Below are positions 2 to 17,712 of a stretch of 18,809 nucleotides of DNA, one piece after another (positions within the stretch are counted from its first letter, which is position 1; every line of letters starts with the position of its first letter). The DNA is from Bdellovibrionia bacterium (GTDB lineage: Bacteria; Bdellovibrionota; UBA1018). The stretch spans positions 1 through 18,809 of the forward strand of contig JBMSSC010000044.1 in NCBI GenBank assembly GCA_049424145.1, given 5' to 3'. The notes under the pieces were generated by a model. That model saw only the letters and a list, made by a program, of their open reading frames with translations. It was not told the origin of the DNA and ran no database searches. The translations under genes and the position numbers were made by a program.

Positions 2-853
2 ATCTTAACGCGCTTGGAGCAACCCAAGAAGGCGAATCTCTCGTTGCTTCAAAAACTGAAACTCTATGATGGGAAAACCTTAACGGGATACACTGAAGAT
101 AACGTCAAGGAGCTCAGAAAAGAAGCCATTCGTGAGGGGTTAGAGGGGATCAGTCCTCGTTACATTCAGGATAAAATCTCCAATGCTCTCGTCAATGACA
201 AGGGAGGGGAGATTGGTTGCGTCAATCCATTTATGGTGATGAATGAGCTGGATGGGGGATTAAAAAACCATGCGCTCATTGGAAGCGATGAGAAGCGACG
301 CGAGTACAAAGACCTCTTGGCCGTGGTTAAGCAGGAGTACGAGGATATCGTAAAAAATGAAGTCCAGCGCGCCATTTCGGCCGATGAGGATTCCATTGCT
401 AAGCTCTGTGCGAACTACATTGATCATGTCAAAGCCTACACCCAGCGGGAGAAGGTCAAAAACAAGTACACCGGGCAGGATGAGGAACCCGATGAGAGAC
501 TGATGCGCTCGATTGAAGATAAGATCGATATCCCTGAAAGTCGTAAGGATGACTTTAGGCGTGAGATCATGAACTACATTGGAGCGCTCGCCATTGAAGG
601 TCGTACGTTTGATTACAAAACCAATGAGCGTCTGCACAAGGCTCTGGAGTTGAAACTTTTTGAAGATCAAAAAGACACCATTAAGCTCACTTCGTTAGTT
701 TCTAACGTGGTGGATCGCTCCACCCAGGAGAAGATCGATGTGGTGAAGACTCGATTAGTGAAGAACTACGGGTACTGCGAGATCTGCTCAACGGATGTCC
801 TGAATTTTGTGGCCAGTATTTTTGCCAGAGGGGACGTGAAAAAACGGACATGA
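2..853 (+). CDS. prkA: PrkA/YeaG-family AAA+ ATPase/serine kinase, C-terminal part (5' end outside window)
   Basis: Frame is open from base 2 (ILTRLEQPK...). Typical PrkA C-terminal motifs: [44 protein letters not shown]. Stop overlaps the next start (ATGA, 850-853). Canonical synteny with yeaH-spoVR. Confidence 0.95.
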
Positions 854-1959
854 TCTACAATATTAAGCGTGATCACGCCCGGTTTCGATCGATTGTTAAA
901 GGGAAGATCAAGCAGGATCTCAAAAAATACGTCACCCATGGGGAAATGATCGGGCGCAAGGGGAAGGACTTAGTCAGTATCCCCTTGCCGCAGATTGACA
1001 TCCCACGCTTCCGCTTCGGAGATCGGGATCAGGGTGGCGTGGGTCAGGGAGAGGGTAATCCCGGGGATCCGATTGGTCAGGGGGATCCTGAGCCGGGTCA
1101 AGGGGAAGCAGGCGATCAACCCGGGAAGCACTCGCTTGAGGTGGATTTAAGCGTCGAGGAGTTAGCTGATATTTTAGGTGAGCAATTGGAGTTGCCTAAG
1201 ATTGAGCCCCGGGGCCATAAGACGCTCAAATCCAAGACGGAGAAGTACACGGGCATTGCCAACTCAGGGCCCAACTCCTTGAGGCATTTTAAGCGCACCT
1301 TTCGTGAGACCCTCAGGCGCCAGATTGCCTCAGGCGTCTACAATCCCGATCAACCCGTCATCATCCCCATTCGAAAAGACATGCGGTTTCGCTCCTGGAA
1401 AACCTCCGTTCGCCACGAGAACAACGCCGTAATTATCTATATGATGGACGTCTCAGGGTCGATGGGGGATGAGCAAAAGGAGATCGTTCGAACCGAAGCG
1501 TTTTGGATCGATACTTGGCTTCGCTCCCAGTACAAAGGGATTGAAACTCGTTACATCATCCATGATGCCACGGCGCGAGAGGTGGATGAGGAGACCTTCT
1601 TTAAAACGCGGGAGTCGGGAGGAACCCTCATTAGCTCAGCCTACAAGCTGTGTGAAAAAATCATTGAGACGGATTATCCCCCTTCGGATTGGAACATTTA
1701 TCCCTTTCACTTCTCAGACGGGGATAATTGGTCGGGAGAGGATACGCGGTTTTGTCTGGACCTTCTGGAGAAGTCCTTGCTTCAGGTGTGTAACGTATTT
1801 TGTTACGGTCAAGTGGAGTCTCGATACGGTTCCGGACAGTTTTATAAGGACTTAAGGGAGCACTTTGGTGTGCAGCATGACTCCGTGATTCTCTCTAAGA
1901 TTGAAAACAAAGAGGGAATTCTTCAATCCATTAAAGAGTTTCTCGGCAAGGGGAAATAA
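850..1959 (+). CDS. yeaH: YeaH/YhbH (DUF444, UPF0229) family protein with vWA-like domain
   Basis: N-terminal DHARFR..IK, Gly-rich GVGQGEG linker, MIDAS-like [33 protein letters not shown]. Lies between prkA and spoVR. Confidence 0.95.
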
Positions 1960-1963
1960 CCAT

Positions 1964-3472
1964 ATGGCTCAGGGTGATTTTTATAGTAGCGAGTTACCTC
2001 CTGAACTGCTGAAGATCCGGGATCAGATCCGAAAGTACGCCGAAGGCTATGGACTGGACTTCTTCGATGTCATCTTTGAAATGGTCGATTCGGATCAAAT
2101 CAATTCCCTGGCGGCGTTAGGCGGCTTTCCGGTTCGCTACCCTCATTGGCGCTTTGGGATGGATTACGATCAGCTCTCCAAAGGCTACACGTGGGGCTTA
2201 CAAAAGATCTACGAGATGGTGATTAACACGAACCCATCTTATGCCTATTTAATGAAGTCCAATAATATCGTGGATCAGAAGACAGTGATGGCCCACGTCT
2301 TTGGGCATGTGGATTTTTTCAAAAACAACACCTGGTTCTCCAAAACGAATCGCAAAATGCTCGATCAAATGGCCAATCACGCCGTGAAGATCCGAAATTA
2401 TATGGATCGTTATGGTCAGGACAAAGTGGAGGGCTTCATTGATTCCTGCTTAGCCATTGAGAATCTCATTGATCCCTACTTGCCGTTTTCAGGGGTCAAG
2501 CGCTCAGGCTCAGCTCAGGATGAGGCTGAGGCAGAGACTTCGGCTCGGGTCGGGAGAATCCGAACGGATCGCCCCTACATGGAGCAGTACATGAATCCTC
2601 CGGAGTTCTTAGAGGAACAAAGAAAGCGTCTGGATCAGGAGGCTCGAAAAACCAAGAAGAACCCTCCTTCACCGGAGAAGGATGTGCTGGCTTTTTTACT
2701 TCAGTACGCGCCCCTGGAGAGTTGGGAGCAGGATATTTTATCCATGCTTCGGGATGAGGCTTATTACTTTGCCCCTCAGGCCCAGACGAAGATCATGAAC
2801 GAGGGCTGGGCCTCCTATTGGCATTCTCGCATCATGACTGAAAAAGCGTTGAAAGATTCTGAGATCATTGATTTCTGTGATCACCACGCAGGCACCCTGG
2901 CCATGCAGCCGGGTCGGATTAATCCCTATAAAGTGGGCATTGAACTGTTTCGAGACATTGAAGACCGCTGGAATCGCGGGAAGTTCGGAAAACAGTACGA
3001 TGAGTGTGATGACATGAGAGCCAAGGCCAATTGGGATCAAAAGCTAGGCCTAGGACAGAAGAAGATTTTTGAGGTTAGGCGGGTCTGCAATGATGTGACC
3101 TTCATTGATGAGTACCTCACCGAAGAGTTCGTCGAGCGCTTTCAGCTGTACACCTATGCCTTTAATCGCAGAACGAATCAGTACGAAATCGCAGATCGGG
3201 ATTTTAAAAAGGTGAAAGAAAAACTCCTTTTTCAGCTCACCAACTTAGGGCAGCCCTTCATCTATGTGGTGGATGGGAATTTTCAGAACAAAGGGGAGCT
3301 GCTGTTGCTTCACAAACACCAAGGCTTGGATTTGGACGTCAAGTGGTCACGAGAGACCATGAGAGCCCTAAGTGAGATTTGGAAGCGCCCGGTGAACGTT
3401 GAGACGGAAGTCGATACGCAGAAGAAGCTGTTTACCTATCAAAATTCCGAGTTCTCTGAGCGATTTCTATGA
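1964..3472 (+). CDS. spoVR: SpoVR/YcgB family protein
   Basis: Hallmark motifs GGFPVRYPHWRFG, IYEMVIN, HVFGHVDFFKNN, YYFAPQAQTKIMNEGWASYWH, NPYKVG. ATG at 1964 (4 nt after the yeaH stop, AAGGGG upstream) preferred over TTG 1901. Confidence 0.96.
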   Translation: MAQGDFYSSELPPELLKIRDQIRKYAEGYGLDFFDVIFEMVDSDQINSLAALGGFPVRYPHWRFGMDYDQLSKGYTWGLQKIYEMVINTNPSYAYLMKSNNIVDQKTVMAHVFGHVDFFKNNTWFSKTNRKMLDQMANHAVKIRNYMDRYGQDKVEGFIDSCLAIENLIDPYLPFSGVKRSGSAQDEAEAETSARVGRIRTDRPYMEQYMNPPEFLEEQRKRLDQEARKTKKNPPSPEKDVLAFLLQYAPLESWEQDILSMLRDEAYYFAPQAQTKIMNEGWASYWHSRIMTEKALKDSEIIDFCDHHAGTLAMQPGRINPYKVGIELFRDIEDRWNRGKFGKQYDECDDMRAKANWDQKLGLGQKKIFEVRRVCNDVTFIDEYLTEEFVERFQLYTYAFNRRTNQYEIADRDFKKVKEKLLFQLTNLGQPFIYVVDGNFQNKGELLLLHKHQGLDLDVKWSRETMRALSEIWKRPVNVETEVDTQKKLFTYQNSEFSERFL

Positions 3473-5427
3473 GGCCAATTGGGACTTTCTGAGTGGCTTA
3501 AGTGGGAGACCACACAGAAGGGATCAGTGGGGAAGTACCGGCAAAGTCGGTCTTGAAGTTTTTGGAGCCGTTTTTCTTTCAGCGCAAGCTCCGCTTGAAG
3601 GTGCTTGATTTCCTTTTCTCGGTCTTGGTGATCTTGTTTCATTTGGCGAGAGATGCTTTTTAGGGCTTGAAGCATGAGGGGGCTCATTTGATCATAGTTG
3701 ACGGAGAATTGAACGCCGGCGGGACTGATGAAGCCGTGCTCATCCTGAGTCTCCACTAAGTCGGGGTGGTTGGGGGACGGGGTTTTTGAGACCATCGTGT
3801 CAAATCCTAAGCGGAGAAGATCTTGAGCCATTAACCCGTACTGAGTTTCCTGGCTGTGCTTCCATTTGAATCGTTTGGGCTGAACCTGTTCCACGAAGTG
3901 CAAAGCCACTTGCTCATCAATGGGTTGGATATCGGTTTTGAGTCTACGATCGGAGGTTTCATTAAAGCTTGAGGCTTTGATCTTACCTTGGGCGTTTACG
4001 GAAGTGTAATTGATCAGACTGTCTACGGCGTCGATTTGGAGAGGAAAAGAGGGATTAGCATCGCTCCCAATACTGACCCATCCTGCTTCTGTGATTTTAA
4101 AAAGCTGGGTGGATCCCTTGGAGATTAAAAACGGTGGGATCGTCGCTCCGGAGGGAAGGGCCAGGGTGAGTGAGGCGACTTTTCCGGTGGGCACGTCATT
4201 GGAATTTCCAATCAGAACTTGGCTGCCCCCATTTTCTGAAGCGGCGTCGGTATTGAGGGCTGGAAAATGAGCCGTGCCATTGACGTCGAGTTTGGCATCA
4301 GGATTTTTCTTTTGGACGCCCACCCCTGCGGCGGTGATGGAAAGGCCCAGGGTATTTCCCGTGCCGGGTGTCGTCGAACCGCCGCTTGTGGCACTGGAGT
4401 TGAGAAAAAAATCACTGCCATTTCCAGAATCATTATTGGCATTCTTATGTCTAGATCGAATGAAGTGCCGAAATCCTCCGCTTTCTGACTGCAAGGCAAG
4501 AGCGGGGTACCCATCGCTCCCAGCAGCATTGGAGCCGGACTGGATGTCAATTTGCCCAAGCGGTGTCTGGGTTCCTATCCCTAAGTAGCCTTGGGAGTTC
4601 AATCGCATCCATTCCGAGGAGCCTCTACCGAAGCGGATGATTCCGTTCATATCCGTCACACTAGAGTAGGCGCTTAAGTCTATGAATACTTTTTTTGCGG
4701 CATTTGATCCTCCGCCTGCGCTGAGTCTTAGAAATCCATCATCGGCGGTGGGGCCTGTGCCGGAGTAGCCTGAGATTTCCCCAGGAATCCGCAAGGAGCT
4801 GATGGCGGGTCGAGGGTCACTGGAGGTTAATCCGGAGTTGATGAGGAGGGAGGCTTGATTCGAGGCTGTGGAGTCTAAGTGGAGGGTTCCTAAAACGTCC
4901 AATGGCATGGATGGATTGGTCGTTTTAATGCCGACATAGCCCGTGAGACTTGAGATGGTCAGATCAGGAGTGAATCCGCTTTCTACACTCAGATAAGCGG
5001 GAGTTGTACCATCATAGGGCCAGTTCACAAGCGTCGTGATCCTTCCAAGACTTAAGTCTTCACCGCTTTGATTGCTGGTGAACACTCGGGTTCCAAGCCC
5101 TGTGAACTTGGCAATCCCATAGTTGTAGTTGTAAAGCGAGATCATCGCTTGCTGGGAGTTGGGGTCACCGGTATAAAACACGGACTGACCTCCCACTCTT
5201 AAATCCCCTTGAACGTCAAGGCGCTCGTTTGGATTGGTAGTTCCGATTCCTGCGTTTTTTAGGGACGGATAAAATTGGCTGTTGGCACTGGTGTAGGGAT
5301 CAGGCAAGGTGCTGTCCATGATGATGGGGAAGGTGGTATCAGCAAAACTCCTGGCACTCCCACACAGGAGTAATCCTAGCAGCGTCAGAGCAACAAGAGG
5401 AATTTGAAGCGAAATTTTTGTTCGCAC
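3439..5427 (-). CDS. Secreted trimeric tail-fibre-like adhesin with C-terminal Peptidase S74 intramolecular chaperone (fibre A)
   Basis: Sec signal (MRTK...LLLCGSARSFA). Repeated GxxGIGTxxP...LDVxG fibre repeats. TSDRRLK autocleavage motif at 3937-3954, then FKWK, YGLMAQD, VNYDQM, a coiled coil and LCRYFPTDPFC. GTG start. Confidence 0.88.
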   Translation of the reverse strand: MRTKISLQIPLVALTLLGLLLCGSARSFADTTFPIIMDSTLPDPYTSANSQFYPSLKNAGIGTTNPNERLDVQGDLRVGGQSVFYTGDPNSQQAMISLYNYNYGIAKFTGLGTRVFTSNQSGEDLSLGRITTLVNWPYDGTTPAYLSVESGFTPDLTISSLTGYVGIKTTNPSMPLDVLGTLHLDSTASNQASLLINSGLTSSDPRPAISSLRIPGEISGYSGTGPTADDGFLRLSAGGGSNAAKKVFIDLSAYSSVTDMNGIIRFGRGSSEWMRLNSQGYLGIGTQTPLGQIDIQSGSNAAGSDGYPALALQSESGGFRHFIRSRHKNANNDSGNGSDFFLNSSATSGGSTTPGTGNTLGLSITAAGVGVQKKNPDAKLDVNGTAHFPALNTDAASENGGSQVLIGNSNDVPTGKVASLTLALPSGATIPPFLISKGSTQLFKITEAGWVSIGSDANPSFPLQIDAVDSLINYTSVNAQGKIKASSFNETSDRRLKTDIQPIDEQVALHFVEQVQPKRFKWKHSQETQYGLMAQDLLRLGFDTMVSKTPSPNHPDLVETQDEHGFISPAGVQFSVNYDQMSPLMLQALKSISRQMKQDHQDREKEIKHLQAELALKEKRLQKLQDRLCRYFPTDPFCVVSHLSHSESPNWPHRNRSENSEF

Positions 5428-5433
5428 ATCGTT

Positions 5434-5461
5434 TTTTCGGAAAAACTGGGAAAAAAATTGA
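5434..5461 (-). promoter_or_regulatory. Putative sigma28 (FliA)-type promoter of fibre A
   Basis: Minus strand TCAA-tttttttcccagtttt-TCCGAAAA (16-nt spacer), ending 6 nt before the GTG. A second -10-like TCCGATAC lies at 5471-5478. Confidence 0.5.
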
Positions 5462-5505
5462 ATTTTTTAAGTATCGGAAATCTTGATTTTTTTTGTTTTT
5501 TTCCT

Positions 5506-7662
5506 TCAGTTAGCCTGGATGTTGAAATCGTCGCTAGATGGCTTGTGCTTTGAGACGGGGTTGCCACTTTCTGAGCTGCGGGGGCTTTTGAGGGATCGCT
5601 TCTGCTCGGCTTCTATGAATTGACGAATGGGCAAAAGTTGACTCAGAATTGGGGTGATATCGACGTAATCCGGATCCTTGGAAAATTCTCTTTTTTCTGA
5701 ACCCAAGAGGAGTGCCCTGGCTTGACTGGTGTACTCCAGAGGTTTGTTCGTGAGGATTCCGCTATCGAGCACTTGTTCGTCGGTTCCATAGGAGTTGATG
5801 CGGTTTTGAGGGTTCCTAATTCTCTCAATCCAAACTCGACCTTCTTGGTCTTTCGCCATATGCCATTCTAAGGGCTTTCCGTTCAGAGAACTGTGAAAAA
5901 CTTGGACTGTGGTTTCACCCAAGAGACTGTGATCAAATCGGTAGGTCCGATCGGGGGCTTGATTGAAGTTCGGGATAAATCCTTGGATCGCTTCGTCGTT
6001 GAAGCGTTGATTGAGAGTTTCAATGTAGTGGGTGAAGTTCTTTTTGGGTTGATCTTCAATACTTTTAAAAGTCGAGTTAGAAAAAATACGGGCACACATC
6101 AGGTCTGTTGCTTGAGTTAATAGGGAACGTCCAAGAGGGTTGCTTGTAGCCTTGGCGTAGTCTTGAGCAAGGTCACACTCAAAGCAATCTCCTGGTGTGC
6201 ACTCTTGGAAGATCTTCAGGAGTTGGCTTTCTGCTTGATTCTTTGATTCTTCTTTAAAGTGGTTCGAGTTTCTTCGGAAAGGATGGAGCTCGTTTTTCGA
6301 GTTTGGGTCGGGCCAGTAAAAATGAGAATAGACTTCATTTTCTTGGTCTTCTGTGAGGCGCTCTTTGGGTCGGGTTTCAAGTTTTTGGAGAGCATGAATA
6401 ATGTCTTGGTGAGGCTTGGTTTCTTGAGTGTAATGAATTTTATTTCCTTTTGAATATCCATGTTCTGTAATTTGTGGGCAGGATCTCCATCCACCGTCAC
6501 TTCTTGATTTATAGAACAATCGGGGAACAAATAGCTTTTGACCTTCATGTTCAATTTCTGTGTAGAGAATGACGTGAGGTCGTTGTGAACCTTCGAGGAT
6601 TCCTGTTGTGTAGAAAGTCCGATTTCCAATGATGATTTTATCTTTTGGGTCGAGCTGGGTGAGGTTCAGTTTCATCAGCTCATTTAAAATAAATGACTGA
6701 TTCTGATCTTTGAGTTTGGCTGTGATGGCTTTGATTTCAGGGTCGTGCTCAGGCTCTTGGTTAGATGGGGTTTTCTTTTTGTTTCGTTGAAACGCACGAA
6801 AAGCTCGTTGAATCCGAAGCGCCGCTTGTTCTTCGCTGAGTACGGGGCACGACGAAGAGAGGAGTGCACGGGGAGTGGAATGATTGATCTGTTCGACGCT
6901 TTTTATGGCCGTTTCAATGGGGTTTTCAGGTTTTTCTATGGGGTGTGCAGAGGGTTTCTCAGGCTGCTTCAAATGCTCAGAGTAGGTCGTGAGGAAGGTT
7001 GAGTAGTGCTGGGCAATCAACTCGGGGTCAGGACGATGAGAGGCGCACTGCTGGGCAACTGCTGAGAGTGAATCTCGGCTGGGTTTGAGCGGATCGCTAT
7101 TCAGTGTTTTTGTGAACTCTTGGGTTAATCCTGCATAAGCTTTCAGGGCTGTTGGTTGGTTGAGTTGATCTCGGTAGGCTTCAACCGAGGGGATGAGGGG
7201 GTGATGGGGAGCTAATTCTTTTAAAAGTTGCACATAGGAGTTGAGAACTAAAGTGTGATCCGATCGAGGATCAGAAATGACTTGGATGAAGCGAGATGCT
7301 TGAGAATCCGTGGCGGAGGCCTTAGCCCATGCTGAAATACTTTCTTTGTACCTATCCCAGATTTCTTCGGTGGAAAGGGAGGCGTAGGCTATGGATAAAA
7401 TCCAGGTTTCAGGGATCAAAAGTCGTCCCCAGCGGGAGTGATTTCTGGGCCTCGTTTGGTCGCCACGGGGAGGTCGCTTTAGGGAGTTCAAAGGAGGCGG
7501 CGGTAGCGGCGGAGGTAAAAAGTACTTTTGGGTCTTTGAGTCTGAGAGTGGGGTCGAGCGAGGGAGGGTGGCTAAGCTGGGTTCTTCAGAACCCAAGAGG
7601 ATCATGAGGCTCAAGATCATGAACTTCTTGAGGCAAAAGTGGGGGTTAGAAAAAGGGTTCAT
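5506..7662 (-). CDS. Secreted hypothetical protein (~718 aa) with poly-Pro tract, IQ-like motif and unknown C-terminal domain
   Basis: Long ORF. ATG at 7662 overlaps the stop of the upstream fibre (ATGA). KKFMILSLMILLG...SLA signal peptide, FLPPPLPPPPL, AALRIQRAFRAFQRNKK. Confidence 0.85.
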   Translation of the reverse strand: MNPFSNPHFCLKKFMILSLMILLGSEEPSLATLPRSTPLSDSKTQKYFLPPPLPPPPLNSLKRPPRGDQTRPRNHSRWGRLLIPETWILSIAYASLSTEEIWDRYKESISAWAKASATDSQASRFIQVISDPRSDHTLVLNSYVQLLKELAPHHPLIPSVEAYRDQLNQPTALKAYAGLTQEFTKTLNSDPLKPSRDSLSAVAQQCASHRPDPELIAQHYSTFLTTYSEHLKQPEKPSAHPIEKPENPIETAIKSVEQINHSTPRALLSSSCPVLSEEQAALRIQRAFRAFQRNKKKTPSNQEPEHDPEIKAITAKLKDQNQSFILNELMKLNLTQLDPKDKIIIGNRTFYTTGILEGSQRPHVILYTEIEHEGQKLFVPRLFYKSRSDGGWRSCPQITEHGYSKGNKIHYTQETKPHQDIIHALQKLETRPKERLTEDQENEVYSHFYWPDPNSKNELHPFRRNSNHFKEESKNQAESQLLKIFQECTPGDCFECDLAQDYAKATSNPLGRSLLTQATDLMCARIFSNSTFKSIEDQPKKNFTHYIETLNQRFNDEAIQGFIPNFNQAPDRTYRFDHSLLGETTVQVFHSSLNGKPLEWHMAKDQEGRVWIERIRNPQNRINSYGTDEQVLDSGILTNKPLEYTSQARALLLGSEKREFSKDPDYVDITPILSQLLPIRQFIEAEQKRSLKSPRSSESGNPVSKHKPSSDDFNIQAN

Positions 7663-9833
7663 CGACACTCGGGGTCCTCCGGAAAGTGGCGGCAGAAGAG
7701 GACCTCGGTCTCTTGGAGACGCTGATCAAGTCCCTGAAACCTGTGGTGAGTTTGAGAGAAGCCTTCTTGCTCTATTTTCTTTTGATCCCGGCTTTTTTGA
7801 AGCGTAACTTTTGTCGCGGCTAAAAGGAGGACCTGAGTTTGGCTTGGTCGGATGGTGAATACGGTTTGCGCTGGGCTGATGATCCCAGTTGGGTCCCGCT
7901 CTTCCTTCATTTCAGGGGCTGGTTCTGGGTGAACGAGAAGTGGAAATTCAGCGGCTAACCAGTCTTGAGCGATAAAACCATAGGTCTTTTTTTGATTTTT
8001 TTTCCACCGAAATGAGACGGGATTTGATCGCTCTAAAAACTGTTGAGCGGTCGCTTCAGAGATGGGTTCAATTTCTTCTTTCAGTCGGCGGTCTGATGTG
8101 GAAACCTTGGCGAGGCATTTAAACTTCCCAGTGGCTTTGATTACGGTTTTGGTGGGATCATCTGAGCCCGTGGAGGAGACTTGGAGGGGGTATTGATCGC
8201 TTGTCGTGGATCCAATGATCACACGAGGATCCGTGCCTGAGAACTTCACCTGAAACCAGGGAGTTTTTGAGCCCGCTACTAAAAACGGAGCGAGGGTTGC
8301 AGTGGAGGCTTGGGCAATGGTGAGGTCGGCTTTTTCCCCTGAGGGAACTTGGGTGGTTTCTCCAATCAGAACTTGACTCCCTGCGTTTTCAGGCGCTTCG
8401 GTGGCGTTGAGTGCAGGAAGGTGAACGGTCCCTTGAACATCCAGGGAGGCTTGTGGATTTCGAGAAAAAATACCGACGCCTGCAGCCGTGACACTCAGAC
8501 TCATTTGATTTGTGGTGAGACTTCCTACGAGAGGATCTGGGGCGAGAGAGGCTTGGGGTGTTGCTGAATTATTGAGGAAAAAGTCGATGCCGTTTCCGCT
8601 GAGGTACTCATCGGTGGAGTGACGGGTGCGAATGAAGTGCCTGTAGCCACCACTGGATGAGGTGAACGCGAATTGAGGAACCGTGGTGTTGACGGCACGA
8701 ACATCGATGAACGCTTTGGGGGAATCACTTCGGATCCCTAGGTGACCGTTTGAATCCAGCCGAGCCCACTCAGTTGATCCACGGGCAAAGCGGAGGGTGC
8801 GGTCCATCTCGGGTTCACTGAAGCTGCCTGTGATTTCCAGGAGGGTTTTAAAACTGGATTGGGTTCCTCCCCCTGCACTCAATCTTAAAAAGCCAGAATC
8901 ATTGGTGGTCCCCTGAGATCCATGTCCCGAGATTTCCCCAGCCCGTCCCGCAGGATTCACGCTTAAGTCAGTGAGGGTGGGTGAGGTCGGGGTGCGGATT
9001 AAAAGAGATCCGTTTTCAGGAGTAGGTGACGAGAGAGCTGTGCCTCCGGAAACCGTCAGTTCTTCATCGGGTGTGGGGGTGTGAATTCCAATTCGACCGG
9101 AGCTGTGAACCAGGAGGCTATCGGAGTAATAAGCCTCGGTGAGTAGGTAGGGGTTTCCTCCACCACTGTAAGGCCATGGGATATTGGGGCGGATCACTCC
9201 TAAGCTTAAGTCTGTCGTATGGCTCGAATAGAGGATTAAGCCTCCCGAGGTTTTCTTGGCGATCCCGTAGTTATAACTCAATAAGCTCACCATGGCTTGA
9301 GGAGTCTCAGTCAAGGGGGTGCTTGCTTGCCCTCGTAAAAACAAATCCCCTCCAATGTCAAGGCGTTCGGGGGAGCCTCCTTGAGATCCGATTCCACTGT
9401 TCCACAGGTTCCAGTAGTAGGGACTTGCAACCTTTTTATAAGGCTCGGGTAATTGGGCCTCTGTGGAGAGGTAAAAATAGAAGGATCCATTGTCGTTTGT
9501 CAGCTTGAGTTCATAGACCGTGCTCACGCTCAGATGGAGTTCCGATTCTGGCGTTGCGATTAAAGCACTTTCCGATTGAGAGAGGACGGTGAACGGAGCG
9601 GTCAGATTCAAGCCATTCAGAGTCACTTGGCTAATGAAATCCAAGTGCGAGCCACTTAAAATCAGGAAATTTTCTGAAACGGAGACCTGGCTTAAGGTCG
9701 GTCTTCCAACAGCGTCATAGGCTTGATTCCCGGAGGGGGTCTCGACACAGCTGCTGAAAACTCCGAAAGCCACCAGGGCAAGTACGCCGCGGCGAAGCAT
9801 CGGATGGATCTGAAAAAGAAAGTGGAGTCTCAC
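7659..9833 (-). CDS. Lipoprotein trimeric tail-fibre-like adhesin with N-terminal IPT/Ig-like domain and C-terminal Peptidase S74 chaperone (fibre B); start may be ATG 9800
   Basis: MLRRGVLALVAFGVFSS-C lipobox. PTLSQVSV..LILSGSHL IPT/TIG-like segment. Fibre repeats. TSDRRLK at 8079-8096, FRWK, YGFIAQD, C-terminal FCRHFPEDPEC. Colinear paralogue of 3439-5427. Confidence 0.88.
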   Translation of the reverse strand: MRLHFLFQIHPMLRRGVLALVAFGVFSSCVETPSGNQAYDAVGRPTLSQVSVSENFLILSGSHLDFISQVTLNGLNLTAPFTVLSQSESALIATPESELHLSVSTVYELKLTNDNGSFYFYLSTEAQLPEPYKKVASPYYWNLWNSGIGSQGGSPERLDIGGDLFLRGQASTPLTETPQAMVSLLSYNYGIAKKTSGGLILYSSHTTDLSLGVIRPNIPWPYSGGGNPYLLTEAYYSDSLLVHSSGRIGIHTPTPDEELTVSGGTALSSPTPENGSLLIRTPTSPTLTDLSVNPAGRAGEISGHGSQGTTNDSGFLRLSAGGGTQSSFKTLLEITGSFSEPEMDRTLRFARGSTEWARLDSNGHLGIRSDSPKAFIDVRAVNTTVPQFAFTSSSGGYRHFIRTRHSTDEYLSGNGIDFFLNNSATPQASLAPDPLVGSLTTNQMSLSVTAAGVGIFSRNPQASLDVQGTVHLPALNATEAPENAGSQVLIGETTQVPSGEKADLTIAQASTATLAPFLVAGSKTPWFQVKFSGTDPRVIIGSTTSDQYPLQVSSTGSDDPTKTVIKATGKFKCLAKVSTSDRRLKEEIEPISEATAQQFLERSNPVSFRWKKNQKKTYGFIAQDWLAAEFPLLVHPEPAPEMKEERDPTGIISPAQTVFTIRPSQTQVLLLAATKVTLQKSRDQKKIEQEGFSQTHHRFQGLDQRLQETEVLFCRHFPEDPECR

Positions 9834-9840
9834 TCGAGAG

Positions 9841-9868
9841 GAATCGGAAGGATGGAAGATAAAGTTGA
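9841..9868 (-). promoter_or_regulatory. Putative sigma28 (FliA)-type promoter of fibre B operon
   Basis: Minus strand TCAA-ctttatcttccatcct-TCCGATTC (16-nt spacer), 7 nt before GTG 9833. Confidence 0.55.
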
Positions 9869-9966
9869 GTGATGACTTGAGGGGGGGGGATTGGATCCGT
9901 TGCCTTTGGGTTTTAAACCTTGAGTTTTCAAGTAAATTTAGGGACTTGCTCCGAGGTGAGCCCGAA

Positions 9967-10761
9967 TCAGAAAGTGAACCCTGCAGTCAGGGCTACGGCG
10001 TCATACTGGATTAAGGTGGTGGGGTTCAGAAGGTAGTAAAATGTGTTTCTCTCCAGGCGGGTGGAGAGGGAGTGAGTTTTTCCTAAAATCACGTGGAGGC
10101 CAACCGAGGCCACGGTTTGGAGCTGTGAGGAGTCCAAAAGGCGTCCTAAGTAGAGGAATCGATAGCTGGCATCAAGGCTCACTCGATCCCAGAGGTGGAA
10201 GCTGATCTCAGGGTAGATCGTGGGGGTGATCACGAGGCCAGGGTAGCCTAAGATCTGATTCGTGCCGGTGAGTTCCGAATAGGCCACTCCGCCAAAGACA
10301 TTGAGGTTTAAAAAGCGGTTTTGAATCAGGGAGTATCCCAGTTCGGCTGTGGCATCGAAGTAGAAAGCCTCCACTCCTCTTCGGTTCGTGCTCATTGTAC
10401 TATGGGTGAGATTGAAACGGGAGCGAGCCTCCATCCTCCAGTGGGGTACCAGGAGCCTGATGCTTCCGTGGAAGTACCCGGATCGCTGAGAGAAGTCAGG
10501 GATTCCCGTTTGAGAGTAATTCATGAGGGCGATTCCCCCTTGGGCGTTCAGATGGAGCCCTGAGCGATAAGGGGCGAAGAGTTCTGCTTCTTTTTTTTGT
10601 TTTTCAGCTAGGGCTTTGTCAGTTTTTAGATCTTCCCCTTCATCGGCGAGTTCAGAATTATTATTCTCAAAAATGGGGGTGGCATCCGGAGCGTAAGGTT
10701 GGTGAGCAAAAAGAATTCCTGCTCCGATGACTCCGGCTGCATAAATCATCATAAGAATCAT
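9967..10761 (-). CDS. Probable outer-membrane beta-barrel protein (hypothetical)
   Basis: AAGGGAG RBS 8 nt before the ATG. Hydrophobic N-terminus, charged linker, then about 10 amphipathic strands (LGYSL, LNVFGGVAY, VSLDASYRF, ASVGLHV). BAM-type terminal AGFTF. Confidence 0.7.
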   Translation of the reverse strand: MILMMIYAAGVIGAGILFAHQPYAPDATPIFENNNSELADEGEDLKTDKALAEKQKKEAELFAPYRSGLHLNAQGGIALMNYSQTGIPDFSQRSGYFHGSIRLLVPHWRMEARSRFNLTHSTMSTNRRGVEAFYFDATAELGYSLIQNRFLNLNVFGGVAYSELTGTNQILGYPGLVITPTIYPEISFHLWDRVSLDASYRFLYLGRLLDSSQLQTVASVGLHVILGKTHSLSTRLERNTFYYLLNPTTLIQYDAVALTAGFTF

Positions 10762-10788
10762 GGCTTAAGCTCCCTTAGGTGATGATTG

Positions 10789-10826
10789 ATTATACACTAA
10801 CAGAGGTGTTTAAAATAGGTTACAAT
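10789..10826. promoter_or_regulatory. Divergent sigma70-like -10 elements
   Basis: Perfect TATAAT on the minus strand (10789-10794) upstream of the beta-barrel gene. TACAAT on the plus strand (10821-10826), 6 nt before ATG 10833. No convincing -35 boxes. Confidence 0.4.
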
Positions 10827-10832
10827 AGAAGA

Positions 10833-11882
10833 ATGCAAGGGAGTGGACAGTCCTCCTTCAGAAGAGAAGTCCATTGGATGATGCTCGGAGCAGGCTTGGC
10901 TTGGGCTACGGCCTGCGTGTTTCCCGCTCCTCAGGCAACGAATAATCTGACGGTGGCCAGTGCTCTTCCCACCGCTTCTCCTTCTCCTAGTGTGACGCTT
11001 GCGGTGAGCTCAAAGTCAGCTCGCTTTTATTTCCAAAGCACGGGTGCGGCCAGTTTTGATCCTCCCCAGGCTTCAGGGACCCTCAATGCGGTGGGCTCGG
11101 GTCTTCAAGCCGTTCGAGTGTACTCCGCTGACGGAGCCGCTCTGGAGCTCAATGGACCCACGGGAACCAATTGGCCGAAATGGATTTCCTCACTGGAGGT
11201 GGGAGTGAGTGGTTCTGCTAACCTCGCTGCCCCCAATCCTCATTGTGCCAATTTTGTGACCGCAGCGGAGAGTAATTCCAATCCAACGTGTTGTACGAAT
11301 CCTGCCGCATGCGGGGCCTCTAGCTTCAACTGTGGTGCCCCTCTGAATCAGTTTCGGGTGAGTGAGTGGGATTGTTTGGGTTCCTCACTGGGGGTGGGGG
11401 GAGCAAGTGATGGGATCTATATTCGTGCTATTTTTAATCGCAGTCCCTCTGTTTTAGCCACGTCAGAAAATATCTTAGTGACCGTCGAGTACACGGCTTC
11501 AAGTCTGAGTTCCTCGCCCACCAATCCAGTGAGTTGTTTAACCGGAGGGGTGTTCTCCCCTGAGTTTTGCTCGGACTTTACCTGGAGAGCTTATTTAAAG
11601 CGGACTCCCACCGAGGTTCTTCAGCCATTTCTGCTTTTGGTTCCCCCCATTTACAGCTCCGCGCAGACAATGGGTACGGGAGTTATGACGAAGCAGTTTT
11701 TCTTACCTCTTGCCTCGGATTCCGCGCTCTCGGTGTTTCAACTGAGTCGGACGGGCAGTACACTAACGGGCGCAACGCCCAACTTTTCTACTCAGTGCTT
11801 CAATGCCCACGCTAGTGGGTATGGTGACTCGCCACTCTGCTCGGGAATGGTTTTTTATTCCATTACGTTTCTCAGGATTTAA
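10833..11882 (+). CDS. Cys-rich hypothetical lipoprotein (~349 aa)
   Basis: FRREVHWMMLGAGLAWATA-C lipobox, Ser/Pro/Thr tether, 10 further Cys. C-terminal domain shared with 17934-18809. ATG 10833 preferred over GTG 10779, which overlaps the divergent promoter. Confidence 0.8.
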   Translation: MQGSGQSSFRREVHWMMLGAGLAWATACVFPAPQATNNLTVASALPTASPSPSVTLAVSSKSARFYFQSTGAASFDPPQASGTLNAVGSGLQAVRVYSADGAALELNGPTGTNWPKWISSLEVGVSGSANLAAPNPHCANFVTAAESNSNPTCCTNPAACGASSFNCGAPLNQFRVSEWDCLGSSLGVGGASDGIYIRAIFNRSPSVLATSENILVTVEYTASSLSSSPTNPVSCLTGGVFSPEFCSDFTWRAYLKRTPTEVLQPFLLLVPPIYSSAQTMGTGVMTKQFFLPLASDSALSVFQLSRTGSTLTGATPNFSTQCFNAHASGYGDSPLCSGMVFYSITFLRI

Positions 11883-12882
11883 GTGCAGTGGGTTTGACCT
11901 CATCCGGATTGCTCCAGTTGTTCGGCAGAGGGGCTTGAAGCGCAAGGAGAGATCCTTTTGCGGTGGGAAGAATCAATTCAAAGGCATGAAGAAAAAGGCG
12001 TGAGGCAGGTTTGCCAGCGTACACTGGATCTCCTAAAATGGGGTAGCCTAAGAGACTCAAGTGACATCGGATCTGGTGTCTCACCCCGGTTTGAATTTGA
12101 ATCTGAAGATCGAATCGAGCGCTCCTTTCGGGAGTCAATCCGCTTGAAACTTGAGCCTCAATTGATTGAATTAGCGTTTGAGTGGGAAGGGCTCCTCCGC
12201 GTGCTTGGTGGGCGCGTTCGGGGGTCCAGGCGATCATTTTTTTTGAGGATTTTTTGGAGTGAGCCAGGGGCGTTTGAATGGGGTGCGGCAGAGGGGGAAA
12301 GGGCTCAGATCCCGTCACCCAGGCGCGATAGATTTTCCTCACTTGCCCGGTTTTCCAGATGGAGCGAAGTCTTTGGTACTCGTCTTGGGTTTTAGCAAAA
12401 GCAAGAAGGCCACTTGTGCCCGTGTCTAAACGATGCACAAGGCCTGACTCAAAGGGGGATCTTCCGATTGAGCACAGGGCTGGGCAGTGGGTTAGGGCGA
12501 GCCCAACAGCCGTTGGGGTGTCGGAGTGATCCAGGGGAACTGAGGGGAGTCCTTCGGGTTTGTTGAGAATCAGAAGTTGATCGTCTTCATGCAGGATGGA
12601 GATCTGAGCAGGAGGTGGAGTCCAGGATTTTAAGGCAGGCGTCTCCAGGTTTTTCAGTTCGTCCAGAAGGTCATTGCTGAGTTGGACTTCAAGGAGGCCT
12701 GGGTTTAAAAGTAACGAGGGTTTGGCCACCTGAGTTTGGATCCGGATCCGACCGGCTTGGAATTGTTTTTTTAGCCAAGCCCGACTGATGCAGGGGTACT
12801 CGAGCTTCAGTTCGCAGAGAAGAACCTGGTCGAAACGCAAGCCCGGGGAGTGGATTTCAAGCGTGCGTGTGGCAAATGTCAT
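11872..12882 (-). CDS. RluA-family (RluC/RluD-like) pseudouridine synthase with N-terminal S4-like domain
   Basis: ILHEDDQLLILNKPEGLPS, catalytic GLVHRLDTGTSGL, KIYRAWV, TGVRHQIRCHL, GYPILGDPVY, RLFLHA. Confidence 0.95.
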   Translation of the reverse strand: MTFATRTLEIHSPGLRFDQVLLCELKLEYPCISRAWLKKQFQAGRIRIQTQVAKPSLLLNPGLLEVQLSNDLLDELKNLETPALKSWTPPPAQISILHEDDQLLILNKPEGLPSVPLDHSDTPTAVGLALTHCPALCSIGRSPFESGLVHRLDTGTSGLLAFAKTQDEYQRLRSIWKTGQVRKIYRAWVTGSEPFPPLPHPIQTPLAHSKKSSKKMIAWTPERAHQARGGALPTQTLIQSIEAQVSSGLTPERSARFDLQIQIQTGVRHQIRCHLSLLGYPILGDPVYAGKPASRLFLHAFELILPTAKGSLLALQAPLPNNWSNPDEVKPTALKS

Positions 12883-12896
12883 GGGGTGTGCCTATC

Positions 12897-15299
12897 TCAA
12901 TACGAGGGTGGAAGACAAGTCCCTTGGGAGGGTTCCAGATGAGAGTCTCCGACGATGCTAAGGGGGGTACCGGATTGATCGATGACGCAGCAGCCTTCTT
13001 GCGGGGTTTTTCCTAAAGCCGCCTTGCCGGCTTGATTGTCGTAGGTGATGGTGCAGTTATAGCTGGAATCGGCCCTGATTCCGCGTTCCACATCCGCTTC
13101 TGGAGCAAGAAGGGGGAAGTGAGTCCAGCCGGCTTCATTGGTCATTGCTACAGTTCGATCGCACGTTGTGCTGGCGTTCGTGGTGGAGTTCGACTTGGGG
13201 TAAGGAGTGAGATTGCTGTGGCGTGCGTAAGCGATTGGTTGATTGGCAGCGGCACTGGGGTAGCTGTAGTTCGTCGTGGGGATTGAAAGCGCGGTGGCCG
13301 TGCAAGCAGTCAGGACACCGGGTGTGTTGCCATTGCGCTTGCTCAGGTGAGAGGTATAAGGAGAAACAAGGCCCAGTGGAGTAATGGGGTTTGCGCTGGG
13401 GGTGAGGGGTGGGTCAAGGGAGGCGATATTGGTGTTTTGAGTGGGGTACGACTCAGCGCACCAGGCGTGATTGGAGCCTGAAGAAGAGGTTGCAAAGTGC
13501 AGGGGGGGGTCCACAAATGGCTTCGCCTGAGGGGCGCAGGCCCTAAAATCCGTATCCTCTTCGTAATGAGGCGTAAACGGCTGAAATGGGCGGATAAACA
13601 GGTGCTTAAACCGAGTGGTGGCCATCTTCTTGTTGACTGTGGTCATGAAAAAGCGTGTTTTATCGGAGCTTAAAAACGGGAGAGTGGCTGAGCAGGAGGT
13701 TTCTGAATCTTCGTTGGGAAACTCAATGCCGTCAATATTCGTGCCCTCGTTGTTGGCTTTACCGTCACCTGTGATCCATCGGGTGTCATTGGTGGCTCGA
13801 TAGCCCAGGGGCATGGATTGACTGCTCGTTGTTGCGGTCGTCGTATCGTAGGTGACATCGTTTCGATCAAAGAACGCAAAGGGGCAGGGCTTAGGTCCCA
13901 GCATGGTGTAAGGCTTCAGAGGATTGGTTGTTCCGGAAGAGGAGGCCACAGGGCGATCTAAGACGTAGATGGTGTCAATGGCTTGGCGATGACTCATGGG
14001 CTTTCCTCCCGTGTCAAAGACGCGAGGGTAGAGGGCCACAAAGCGCCTCAAGCGGAAGGTCTGAATGATTTGTCCTGAGCTGCCTTTGATGTAGGGGCAA
14101 GAGCCATCGGAGCTCACTGGGGCTGCAAATCCTAAGCAGGAGCTGACTACAGAATTCGTATTGGCACTGCTGTTTCCTCCGTTTGAGCTTGCAGTCGGGA
14201 AGCACTGCGAGTTTCCTGCGGTGGGATCTCCCAGACCGCCTGAGAGTTTGGTGTTGGCCTGCACACCGACACTGAAGTCGGCTGAGGGGCTCAGCGCCAG
14301 CGCAAAAGTCTTATCTCCGGGCCAAAACTGATTGCTGGTTCCAACAACGGATGATCCGATGGGGGCCTCCAGCGGTTCTTGAACAAGGGGGCAAACGTAT
14401 CCGTCATTAAATTGATTGATGTCCCCCTTCTCGCTGTTCCGAATGTAGAGGTTAAAGTAATAGGCTTGGGAAGAGAAGTTGGCTTCTCCCAGATTCGGGC
14501 AAGACTCGGAGATACTGGCTGCGGCTCCGGATTTGAGTAGGCAGAAGGCTGAACCATACAGAATGGCCTGTTGGTCTCCGGTGTTGGAGTTGCTCTGGAT
14601 GTAGCGCTTAGATTGGATCGCAAGTCCTTTTTTGAACTTATTGTAGCAGGAGTAGTGAACAATGTTGTCAAAGATGTTTCCCTTTTGGTCTTGAAAGGAG
14701 CCTGAGACGCTTTTTGCTGACTTGGTATAGAGATAGGGTTTGACGCTGAATGTGCCTAGATCTGGATTCGCGGAGCCTGCAACTAGAGATACTTTGATCT
14801 GGGTGCCGTCAATGATCTCTGAGCTGTAGACTGAAGGAGCGCTGCAAATGACTAAAGCGGGTTGGACTTGCGTGAGACTGGTTTGAACGTTTCTTTGAAT
14901 CGCAAGCGATGCGCCACTGCTGGCGTTGATCTCAGACCAGCTGAACTGACAAAAGCAGGGCTTGGGCGTGAGTCCTGAGCTACTGGTATTGCAATGGGTG
15001 GTGACGGGCGTGGTGGATTTTACGGTATCAAAAAAAAGAGCAAAAGAGGGTGCGCTTCCCGAGGTGGAGCCTGAAGCCACGCTGGCAGAGGAAATGACAT
15101 ATTGATCCAGTGAGACGGCTATGGGTGTGGATGTGGGGGATGAAGAAGGAGTGGTCAGTGGAGAGGCACTCATGACGTTTCTGGATAGATTGCTCAGCAG
15201 CGAGTTGGTGCATGCAGAAACGAAAAGGGCGCAGAGGATTCCCAAGAGCTTTAAGGTGAAAGCTTCAGTGCGGGTTGGAAGAGGTTGCGTCCATTTCAT
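12897..15299 (-). CDS. Large Cys-rich, Ser/Thr-rich hypothetical lipoprotein (800 aa)
   Basis: GAGGA RBS, KLLGILCALFVSA-C lipobox, S/T/P tether, about 21 Cys in the mature part. Paralogue of 15388-17634. Confidence 0.85.
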   Translation of the reverse strand: MKWTQPLPTRTEAFTLKLLGILCALFVSACTNSLLSNLSRNVMSASPLTTPSSSPTSTPIAVSLDQYVISSASVASGSTSGSAPSFALFFDTVKSTTPVTTHCNTSSSGLTPKPCFCQFSWSEINASSGASLAIQRNVQTSLTQVQPALVICSAPSVYSSEIIDGTQIKVSLVAGSANPDLGTFSVKPYLYTKSAKSVSGSFQDQKGNIFDNIVHYSCYNKFKKGLAIQSKRYIQSNSNTGDQQAILYGSAFCLLKSGAAASISESCPNLGEANFSSQAYYFNLYIRNSEKGDINQFNDGYVCPLVQEPLEAPIGSSVVGTSNQFWPGDKTFALALSPSADFSVGVQANTKLSGGLGDPTAGNSQCFPTASSNGGNSSANTNSVVSSCLGFAAPVSSDGSCPYIKGSSGQIIQTFRLRRFVALYPRVFDTGGKPMSHRQAIDTIYVLDRPVASSSGTTNPLKPYTMLGPKPCPFAFFDRNDVTYDTTTATTSSQSMPLGYRATNDTRWITGDGKANNEGTNIDGIEFPNEDSETSCSATLPFLSSDKTRFFMTTVNKKMATTRFKHLFIRPFQPFTPHYEEDTDFRACAPQAKPFVDPPLHFATSSSGSNHAWCAESYPTQNTNIASLDPPLTPSANPITPLGLVSPYTSHLSKRNGNTPGVLTACTATALSIPTTNYSYPSAAANQPIAYARHSNLTPYPKSNSTTNASTTCDRTVAMTNEAGWTHFPLLAPEADVERGIRADSSYNCTITYDNQAGKAALGKTPQEGCCVIDQSGTPLSIVGDSHLEPSQGTCLPPSY

Positions 15300-15339
15300 A
15301 AAAAAGTCCTCTTGGGCTCCTGTGCTTCTTGATGAAATT

Positions 15340-15367
15340 CGATCGGTGTCTGCTCTATTTTAATTCA
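15340..15367 (-). promoter_or_regulatory. Putative sigma28 (FliA)-type promoter
   Basis: Minus strand TGAA-ttaaaatagagcagac-ACCGATCG (16-nt spacer), about 40 nt upstream of ATG 15299. Confidence 0.4.
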
Positions 15368-15387
15368 ATTTAATAACTAAAAAAAGT

Positions 15388-17634
15388 TTAATCCGGCTGT
15401 AATACACACACTGGAAATATTCCGTTTCGACCTGGGTCATCAGCTGGGGGATCTCCGTTGCTTCCCACATCATGCAATTTTAATCCAAAAGTCGTCATCG
15501 CGTTCATGGGGTTACAGCGTGAGGGGTCGAGGGCATAAGTGGCATCGGGATCCCTGGATGGCTGGTTGGTTCCGATTTCTTGACAATCGGTATCCGTGTA
15601 GAAGCGATAGGGTTGATAGGGGAGGCTGGCTGCTGTTCCGTTTTGCATGTCAGCGAGCATGATGCTGGGAGGAGTGACCACAAAAAGAAAGTCAAATCGG
15701 GCCGATCCTGTGTCTAATGCTTGAGAGGTGACGTTCATGGAAAAAGGAGCCGCTGGAGCTGTTTTTGGGGTTCCATAGGTCTGAGGGCTCATGTAGGTGG
15801 AGCAGACGTTCAGCGGGTCCACCAGAGGGGAGGCCTTACAGCCATATTTGAGGGCATTGAGATAGCCTGATGTTTGTCCAGAATCGACTCCAAAAGCATC
15901 CAAGTCTGGAGCCGCTGCGTTTTCATTGAGAACCCAAGTGGCCCATCGGTCTTCTTTTTCGGTTCCGCAAGCAAAACCAGGTCCATTCGTGCAGGGAGTT
16001 AGAAATGTTCCTCTTATCTTATAATTATTGTAGTAGTTGGTTAGATAGGGGAAAGCCCCACTCTGAGTCATATCTCCAGAAAAGGCATTAAGTCTCACGC
16101 ACTGGCGAGTGGATAAGATGCGATCGGCTAGAAAATGCGGGCCGCCCGCTTTTGCTTGATTGATGACGCCTTTGATCGACAGAGAGGCTGAAACTCGAGT
16201 CTGATCCAGGTCGCTCTCCTCAACGTCTCGTGGGCATCCTTCGAAAACAGGAATAATTTTGGAACCACTCGTAATATTGGGGTCAGCCCTCCAGTTTCCC
16301 GGATTGCAGTAGATCCCAGAAATCTGGAGCAAAGAGGAGGACTGACCTGGGTTGGTTCCCCCTGAGCCGGGGTAGTAGATGGATCGTTGAGGAAGGCTGG
16401 TTCGAAACAACCAAAGCTTCATCCAATGAAAACCCGAGGGAATCTTAACGGACGAATCGGGGCAAGTTTCCTGACCGGTGCCTGTGAATGAAGGGCGAGC
16501 CCCGTATCCAAGAGGAGGAGGTGGAAAGCCTCCTGAGCTTGATCCCGTCAGAGTGTTGATGCCAGGGGCAACATACGCGTTCACGGGAACACCAAAAACG
16601 CCGGAGGGTTGTTTCGCTAGGTAAAACGTGGAGCGATCCACTTCTCCTGAAGCTAGAGGATTTGAGGGGGAATGTGAGGGGGGAGGGTAAATCACCTTTG
16701 AGTTTGCGGGAAGTCCGGTGGGGAGAGCTCCTTTACTGTAAATGAAGAGATTGGAGTGGTTCTTTTCATTGTAGTAGCTTAAGTCATCTTTTGTGGCGTG
16801 AAAATTATTAGCCGAGCTGCTTAAGTAACGGCTGGGTTCGGGTATGGGAGGGCAGCTCCAGTTGGCAAGCCCCGGGTTGCCGGTGAGCGTGTAGGCTGCG
16901 GAGTAAACGGCGAGATTGCCACCGGGATTGGTGAAGTAAAAATCCAAGGGATAAGTGATCTTATAGTTTTCTGATTGAAAAGGATCATAGACGCTGGGAT
17001 CAAAGAGGTAGCCTACAGTGAGGATATCACTACATTGAAAGCGCTTGGGTTGTAAAAAACTACTGCTTTGAGTGGTGTCCAGCGTGTTGCCATTTCCACT
17101 GAAGGTAAATAGGACTGAATTGCTGTAGAGATCGGCTGTGGTGAGGTGAATGGAGACTTTAAAAGAAGTCACGTCACTGGCTAAGGTGCCATAGTTGCAG
17201 CGAACCAGGTCCGTTTCTGTGTAGATGACAGGGACCTCGACTTTCTGGTTGGGTAAGCTTTGGGAGGAGTAGGTATACACGCAGGTGCAGCTATTGCTCG
17301 AATTTGAACTGGATCCTGTGTTTTGACAGATGCTGCCTAGGGTTCCACTCCCATCCCCCACGAGATCCAAGGTGCCCGTTGGGTTCAGGTTATTCTTTAA
17401 AACCCGGCTTAAGACGAAGCTCACGGTTTCGTTGTTTGTGGGGGCTTGGGCAGACGGGGTGGGTGCGGTCAAGCTACTGAGAAAATTCATGACCCTGAGG
17501 TTATTGGTACAGCCGGATTGAAGCACAAGCACTAAGCATGAGGCAAAAAAAGGCAATAGGCGGAGGCTTCTCGACGCGCAGGTCGAGAAGGCACGGGGGA
17601 GGTCCTTTCTTTTAAAAACCGGGATGATTCTCAA
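15388..17634 (-). CDS. Large Cys-rich hypothetical lipoprotein (748 aa)
   Basis: TTG start with AAAGGA 9 nt upstream, CLVLVLQSG-C lipobox, about 17 Cys in the mature part. Paralogue of 12897-15299. Confidence 0.85.
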   Translation of the reverse strand: MRIIPVFKRKDLPRAFSTCASRSLRLLPFFASCLVLVLQSGCTNNLRVMNFLSSLTAPTPSAQAPTNNETVSFVLSRVLKNNLNPTGTLDLVGDGSGTLGSICQNTGSSSNSSNSCTCVYTYSSQSLPNQKVEVPVIYTETDLVRCNYGTLASDVTSFKVSIHLTTADLYSNSVLFTFSGNGNTLDTTQSSSFLQPKRFQCSDILTVGYLFDPSVYDPFQSENYKITYPLDFYFTNPGGNLAVYSAAYTLTGNPGLANWSCPPIPEPSRYLSSSANNFHATKDDLSYYNEKNHSNLFIYSKGALPTGLPANSKVIYPPPSHSPSNPLASGEVDRSTFYLAKQPSGVFGVPVNAYVAPGINTLTGSSSGGFPPPPLGYGARPSFTGTGQETCPDSSVKIPSGFHWMKLWLFRTSLPQRSIYYPGSGGTNPGQSSSLLQISGIYCNPGNWRADPNITSGSKIIPVFEGCPRDVEESDLDQTRVSASLSIKGVINQAKAGGPHFLADRILSTRQCVRLNAFSGDMTQSGAFPYLTNYYNNYKIRGTFLTPCTNGPGFACGTEKEDRWATWVLNENAAAPDLDAFGVDSGQTSGYLNALKYGCKASPLVDPLNVCSTYMSPQTYGTPKTAPAAPFSMNVTSQALDTGSARFDFLFVVTPPSIMLADMQNGTAASLPYQPYRFYTDTDCQEIGTNQPSRDPDATYALDPSRCNPMNAMTTFGLKLHDVGSNGDPPADDPGRNGIFPVCVLQPD

Positions 17635-17684
17635 ATCATTCAGTCCTTTTTTTATGAGGCCTTAATTGATCAGTCTCTGATTAG

Positions 17685-17712
17685 TATTCGGGTTCTAGAT
17701 ATGCAAAATTTA
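17685..17712 (-). promoter_or_regulatory. Putative sigma28 (FliA)-type promoter
   Basis: Minus strand TAAA-ttttgcatatctagaa-CCCGAATA (16-nt spacer), 50 nt upstream of TTG 17634. Confidence 0.55.

Follow-up and report, generated by a model that had tools for sequence, protein, structure and literature searches.

Four co-oriented genes were studied in contig JBMSSC010000044.1 (assembly GCA_049424145.1) of a Bdellovibrionia bacterium, an uncultured and probably predator-type organism from water; the whole stretch analysed, 18,809 nt, is called the window and is contig C44 of the 2.69-Mb genome G000 (completeness 95%). All four open reading frames (ORFs), which a preliminary description of this sequence had reported as co-oriented, lay on the minus strand behind spoVR and encode a predicted outer-membrane beta-barrel, two fibres with a Peptidase_S74 (S74) chaperone (fibres A and B) and, in the middle gene between the fibres, a protein with an unannotated domain, here called the orphan domain. 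The block is lineage-specific cargo in a variable slot, because the gene content of the slot differed in every genome of the family and 20 regions downstream of spoVR (two of them very short) contained no S74, barrel or orphan domain. It is on balance probable that the block is a lineage-specific cluster of exported-protein genes, comprising two S74 contact adhesins, an orphan-domain protein secreted independently and a barrel that may serve as a lipoprotein anchor.

Conservation of the four-gene layout

The preliminary description had proposed a dedicated adhesin-effector system and expected its neighbourhood to be conserved in relatives; outside the species, however, no locus combined the domain of the middle gene with the barrel family and S74 fibres in the genomes searched, none of which shared the genus. 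No S74 ORF was detected in 37 orphan-domain loci (1283 ORFs outside G000) or in 3 wider loci from relatives, and both S74 and the orphan domain were absent from 60 barrel loci (20 + 40). PF13884 had no match in 26 of the 32 genomes with the orphan domain. Among 40 relatives, three carried this domain, two without any S74 match and the third with S74 on another contig. One other locus with a fibre of the B type had unrelated upstream neighbours. In the family, spoVR usually faces a conserved rluA-lipoprotein operon across the slot. This lack of co-occurrence in 37 + 60 + 20 loci speaks against a dedicated system, and the four-gene layout is likely a loose cluster, not one machine.

The locus is real DNA, as contigs from three studies (X1, which may be the source sample, and X2 to X4 from two further studies) cover it. 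Contigs of X2 and X3 span the junction of spoVR and fibre A, and X3 also spans that of the barrel and lipoprotein genes. Among the pieces listed, the junctions of the middle gene with fibres A and B were covered by at least 31 letters on each side only in X1; no joint omitting the middle gene was present in the strain contigs examined.

The S74 fibres and their candidate promoter sites

Peptidase_S74 scored over the Pfam cut-off in both fibres (E = 4e-13 and 1.5e-11), both contained SDRRLK, which fits the S74 motif SDxxxK, and a relaxed pattern of the capping-loop motif (taken from the available text of PMC10769870) occurred 4 times in fibre A and 2 times in fibre B. The fibres were 40% identical across 618 aa. 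The earlier reading of them as paralogous S74 fibres flanking the middle gene was thus upheld. Mosaic modules of both fibres were common to 10 other proteins. From the ATG at 9800, which is the database call, fibre B has a lipobox-like FSSC ending in Cys18, in agreement with its description as lipid-anchored. The lipoprotein head of fibre B recurs in the closest protein, P0162, and in L208, a metagenome ORF whose end lacks S74, so the lipoprotein-headed form appears from sequence to be a small recurring fibre type.

In the main text of PMC10769870, mosaic adhesive trimer (MAT) fibres are typically about 1000 aa long and all have a conserved N-domain of about 130 aa. The S74 group of the Bdellovibrio bacteriovorus MAT, e.g., Bd3182, shares with our fibres a signal peptide, capping loops of the V-G-G/N-pi-X-X-P-X-X-X-L type and a C-terminal S74 with SDxxxK, and both sets have mosaic modules and a variable distal end. 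The present fibres are different in being shorter; moreover, fibre A lacks the beta-rich N-domain, its mature start aligning only from P0162 residue 112 onwards, whereas a lipobox and an apparently different domain of about 100 aa are present in fibre B. Fibre A is therefore outside MAT membership, yet it likely works like a MAT. A tblastn comparison of the fibre B N-domain with the MAT-like genes of C38 and C12 gave no match. G000 has three long MAT-like genes, on C38, C12 and C32 (2550, 1192 and 1046+ aa); that on C32 carries S74 and is cut at the contig end, and those on C38 and C12 were called from an N-terminal motif that we take to be the MAT one. The last ~24 residues of fibre A have no counterpart in fibre B.

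The distal part of fibre A varied between strains. In the distal half of fibre A, X2 departed from the window at 36 of 863 nt, while the middle gene showed 6 differences in 1067 nt (p = 4e-8); a partial list of 26 differing fibre A codons included 20 non-synonymous and 6 synonymous changes. One X3 contig was identical over 3611-3954 and then, starting with the codon that precedes S492, the predicted S74 cleavage serine, continued for 111 nt without matching; translated by hand, the first ten codons of the divergent stretch resemble the same strand. This allele, known from one contig with a depth of 3.6, suggests a swapped fibre tip. An adhesin-like nature of the fibres, with distal ends that differ among strains, has partial support. 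The middle gene, whose variability the preliminary description had wanted checked, is no variable cassette: it was approximately 99.4% identical between strains while fibre A varied.

The motif TCAA[CT]-N16-CCGA[TA] was found upstream of both fibres, as noted before, but only the fibre B site exceeded chance: with a flagellin-trained matrix it ranked in the top 1.7% of 1157 upstream regions, compared with 0.8% in reversed controls. The motif preceded 25 of 49 flagellin genes in relatives (1 reversed, 0.87 shuffled) and 4 of the six flagellin genes of G000. Together with these flagellins and the MAT-like genes on C38, C12 and C32, such a Bdellovibrio-type FliA motif suggests a Bdellovibrionota-like organism. 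The seed pattern of the matrix was partly derived from these fibre sites, and enrichment over reversed controls was only about twofold at this score (29 vs. 17 at 12 bits). No FliA-like site was observed upstream of the barrel gene or the middle gene (1.4 bits for the latter). In B. bacteriovorus, as far as the available text of PMC3627812 goes, TTAAG-N16-CCGATA marks 92 of 140 attack-phase promoters, and the FliA attack-phase regulon also drives cell-surface anchors. A motif of this type is shared here, the fibre B site fitting the flagellin motif of the order; the present predicted sites are different in having C or T, not G, at the fifth base.

The ATGA overlap of fibre B and the middle gene at 7662-7659 was present. 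Such -4 overlaps are the commonest spacing in G000 (118 of 1152 co-directional pairs, about 10%), and an in-frame GTG at 7668 with GGAGGA 6 nt ahead indicates that the true start may differ from 7662. Since the middle gene has no promoter-like site of its own and a ribosome-binding site lies within the end of fibre B, the two genes are likely co-transcribed. Of the co-expressed four-gene module suggested earlier, this pair can be retained as a prediction; the fibre A site is at chance level.

The middle gene and its possible target cell

Taken whole, the orphan domain had no match to any sequence family or solved fold. A search at E ≤ 0.001 gave 500 representatives. Among 160 homologues, it ended no more than 60 aa from the C-terminus in 123 and followed a signal-like N-terminus in 33 (signal peptides were called from hydrophobicity and visual inspection). 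Fusions in the homologues included FHA, PP2C, metallophosphoesterase, RelA_SpoT, LysM, PG_binding_1, ankyrin and HEAT. Patescibacteria accounted for 18 of the 37 named loci. The family is conserved and well modelled, has neither annotation nor structural match, occurs mostly in small-genome or predator-like bacteria, and is thus a candidate for a new host-directed enzyme. Giant proteins of 4800–7400 aa (P0042, P0087, P0094, P0072 and P0048) also embed this domain.

The preliminary description had assigned an IQ motif to the middle protein. An IQ-like segment was indeed present at aa 279-297, but its best match, IQ_SCN5A_C (E = 0.036), reached 14.1 bits against a cut-off of 27.7, PF00612 had no match in G000 at E ≤ 0.05, and a 40-aa piece around the motif had no family match by itself. 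The segment lacks Gly7 and Arg11 of IQxxxRGxxxR and was absent from all of 159 orphan-domain homologues. An IQ-like pattern was found once in 1838 proteins, with a shuffle frequency of 0.0002–0.013, the patterns having been chosen after the motif had been seen.

Elsewhere in G000, 7 F-box matches were found, 3 of them over the cut-off; this was the highest number among 116 genomes of the order, of which 11 had any. Of 14 controls, 2 gave matches below the cut-off. The F-box ORFs are on C166, C113, C165, C131 (two, plus a third F-box-like start), C162 and C11. All 7 begin with a signal-like segment as judged by eye, and their neighbours are presumably core genes. Proteins combining F-box with leucine-rich repeats (LRR) and F-box with ankyrin were confirmed, and 31 ankyrin matches were present. 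The relative G020, which also has the orphan domain, encodes a protein with signal peptide, IQ and F-box (L080:1393-2313). Three paralogous exported proteins of about 900 aa, on C20, C73 and C41 of G000, carry ankyrins at the C-terminus and a domain without annotation at the N-terminus.

With regard to secretion, no VirB4 or VipB match, as marker of type IV (T4SS) or type VI (T6SS) systems, was found in G000; FHIPEP was represented by one gene only, and GspD scored over the cut-off. GspD provides a route out of the cell, and there is no obvious one into a host cell unless the bacterium sits in a food vacuole. Bacterial effectors that bear an IQ motif and are activated by calmodulin are known (SidJ and CopC), and in the literature available Legionella SidJ/SdjA and Chromobacterium CopC have an enzyme-like domain beside an IQ-like motif, as does the middle protein; F-box plus repeat proteins occur in G000 as in the effectors AnkB and GALA. 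These effectors are injected by T4SS or type III systems and their domains are unrelated to that of the middle gene, different from the Sec-type-looking N-termini and the absence of an injection marker here.

The target cell is rather probably a bacterium, or there is none; a eukaryotic one, in which calmodulin would switch the middle protein, is possible but doubtful. The protist target proposed earlier gained independent support from the F-box-LRR and F-box-ankyrin proteins, though the IQ motif is weak. If a lineage of predator type has such signal-bearing proteins, this would suggest a way of life associated with protists that has gone unrecognised. The eukaryote-like secretome behind the locus was unexpected, and the orphan domain is a valuable lead.

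The barrel, alternative explanations and neighbouring genes

A structure model of the barrel (pLDDT 92.9) had 10 strands and resembled best the folds of omptins and OpcA; the Pfam match to OMP_b-brl (E = 3.6e-4) was under the cut-off. The likeness to omptins (Pla, OmpT) and OpcA is one of modelled fold only (TM 0.64–0.70 by query), with approximately 10% identity, and the Omptin Pfam had no match among 19 members of the barrel family. The family was multicopy and confined to its order in the search, where 103 of the 127 genomes examined from the class had it, but 0 of 11 from the two families of the other order; its members usually have an extra N-terminal domain, which this one lacks. Known outer-membrane protein translocators have 12 or more strands. 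The model thus sets the barrel apart in strand number from protein-translocating barrels (autotransporter, Slam, Omp85); with 10 strands and an omptin/OpcA-like fold, a role as export pore for the fibres seems unlikely.

Of the export or anchor partner suggested in the preliminary description, the anchor is the possible part. A long Ser/Thr/Gly/Asn-rich lipoprotein adjoined 6 of 23 barrels compared with 9 of 161 other genes, and in hold-out loci one adjoined 7 of 44 barrels compared with 7 of 295 (p = 0.0007; 3 of the 7 were from one genus, and p = 0.01 after collapsing it). The surface element holding MAT fibres was unidentified in the main text of PMC10769870, where the words 'lipoprotein', 'barrel' and 'operon' are absent. 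The lipid-anchored fibre and the lipoprotein-associated barrel family are testable candidates for it. In L148-L187, many barrel genes lie beside genes that we take to be HAMP/PP2C-like and FecR-like, sometimes as tandem barrels, a second context of the family.

The favoured lineage-specific cluster could work as follows. While the cells swim, FliA would turn on fibre B together with the middle gene. The fibres would cross the inner membrane via Sec, form trimers and lose the S74 chaperone by cleavage at SDxxxK; both would likely act as trimeric contact adhesins, fibre B remaining lipid-tethered. The middle protein, probably a host-directed enzyme, would exit by Sec and the type II system (T2SS; GspD) on its own, not carried by the fibres. 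Conserved Ser, Arg, Lys, His and Tyr of the orphan domain may make up a catalytic or ligand-binding site; phosphorylated substrates are a possibility, given the FHA and phosphatase fusions. The barrel may anchor a surface lipoprotein and is likely no export pore.

Several points weigh against this reading. The S74 profile used for the loci was built from 9 sequences and may miss distant S74 genes; the genomes compared were of other genera, so a young dedicated system within the genus fits too, and all four genes were kept in the strains of the two further studies. A positional test of FliA-like sites showed nothing, and 12% of upstream regions scored as high as the fibre A site, compared with 11.5% reversed. 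Fibre A variation also fits relaxed selection. Among the hold-out barrels, 37 of 44 had no such lipoprotein neighbour, and here a different lipoprotein gene also lies head to head with the barrel gene. By conservation the orphan domain is a putative enzyme, with neither sequence nor fold match.

Several other explanations are possible for the block. A dedicated four-part system, in which the barrel would serve the fibres as exporter or anchor and these would deliver the middle protein as cargo, is very unlikely: co-orientation, the ATGA overlap, retention in X2-X4 and the enrichment of barrels beside lipoproteins fit it, but its components do not co-occur in the loci surveyed, S74 is missing in most genomes with the orphan domain, -4 overlaps are common in G000, and the modelled barrel is smaller than known translocators. 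Pure juxtaposition of unrelated exported genes in an insertion hotspot, with the middle gene between duplicated fibres without shared role and a chance IQ, is less improbable but still unlikely. It would explain the slot content different in each relative, the low third-position GC content of the middle gene (0.485; neighbours 0.52–0.58, genome quartile 0.498) and the second orphan-domain gene fragment at the start of contig C151 (G000:C151:298-609; 60% identity over 104 aa). However, the likely co-expression of fibre B and the middle gene, and the intact block in the strains, argue against it.

Compatible with the favoured cluster is a protist-directed role, which is possible although we lean against it: the middle protein would be a calmodulin-switched enzyme in a Sec-exported set aimed at eukaryotes, and the fibres would bind the protist. 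The F-box and ankyrin proteins, the rarity of the IQ-like pattern, the G020 protein and the known calmodulin-activated effectors favour this role; the sub-threshold, unconserved IQ and the missing injection markers count against it, the Patescibacteria loci and the LysM and PG-binding homologues suggest bacterial hosts, and G000 also has canonical-looking MAT genes. Its fuller form is unlikely, namely a prey-contact kit turned to protists, in which FliA-driven, tip-swapping S74 fibres hold the eukaryotic cell, Sec/T2SS effectors (at least 7 F-box proteins and a calmodulin-switched new-fold enzyme shared with Patescibacteria epibionts) act on it, and the 10-stranded barrel family anchors surface lipoproteins. 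As the evidence stands, the block is no machine of a categorically new sort; it probably comprises S74/MAT-like adhesins in a loose cluster of exported genes. Phage tail fibres (PHROG 5481, 5668, 1980 and 9942) also have the S74 chaperone and resemble the present fibres distally; different from these, the present genes have signal peptides and a chromosomal context, with no phage genes in the window.

Table 1. Features of the window
Feature	Position	Strand	Description
Four ORFs	10761-9967, 9833/9800-7659, 7668/7662-5506, 5427-3439	-	Barrel, fibre B, middle gene, fibre A
Predicted 10-stranded outer-membrane beta-barrel	9967..10761	-	Divergent short member of order-wide multicopy family
FliA/sigma-28-like promoter site before fibre B	9841..9869	-	13.1 bits
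Fibre B, 713 aa from ATG 9800 (724 from GTG 9833)	7659..9800	-	Lipobox-like Cys18 and beta-rich N-domain of ~100 aa; fibre modules and S74 chaperone (7932-8096)
Middle gene, 718 aa (720 from GTG 7668)	5506..7662	-	Signal-like N-terminus; Pro-rich, helical region for which no homologues were found; IQ-like motif and orphan domain
IQ-like motif, aa 279-297	6772..6828	-	Directly before orphan domain; sub-threshold
Orphan domain, aa 317-688	5599..6714	-	Motifs YxSxSxGxWR, HYTQETK, NKPLEY; confident structure model
Weak FliA/sigma-28-like site before fibre A	5434..5462	-	6.3 bits, chance level
Fibre A, 662 aa	3439..5427	-	Signal-like N-terminus, capping-loop modules of MAT type and S74 chaperone (S492; 3814-3954); lacks an N-terminal anchor domain
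Strain-variable distal part of fibre A	3955..4484	-	Adjoins S74 cleavage site; strain contigs X2, X3
spoVR	ends 3472	+	One flank of the four-ORF block
prkA-DUF444-spoVR operon	14-3472		Ordinary
Lipoprotein gene	10779-11882	+	Other flank; head to head with barrel gene

At 3439-3472, the last 34 nt of spoVR are shared, tail to tail, with the end of fibre A. On the other side of the block, 10779-18770 encodes four Cys-rich exported proteins without Pfam matches and rluA, an operon conserved in the family; its 367-aa lipoprotein had a match in 39 of the 74 genomes of the family, and in the window its gene has been displaced and inverted. The final ORF of the window is the end of a gene of about 1500 aa, cut at the contig end.

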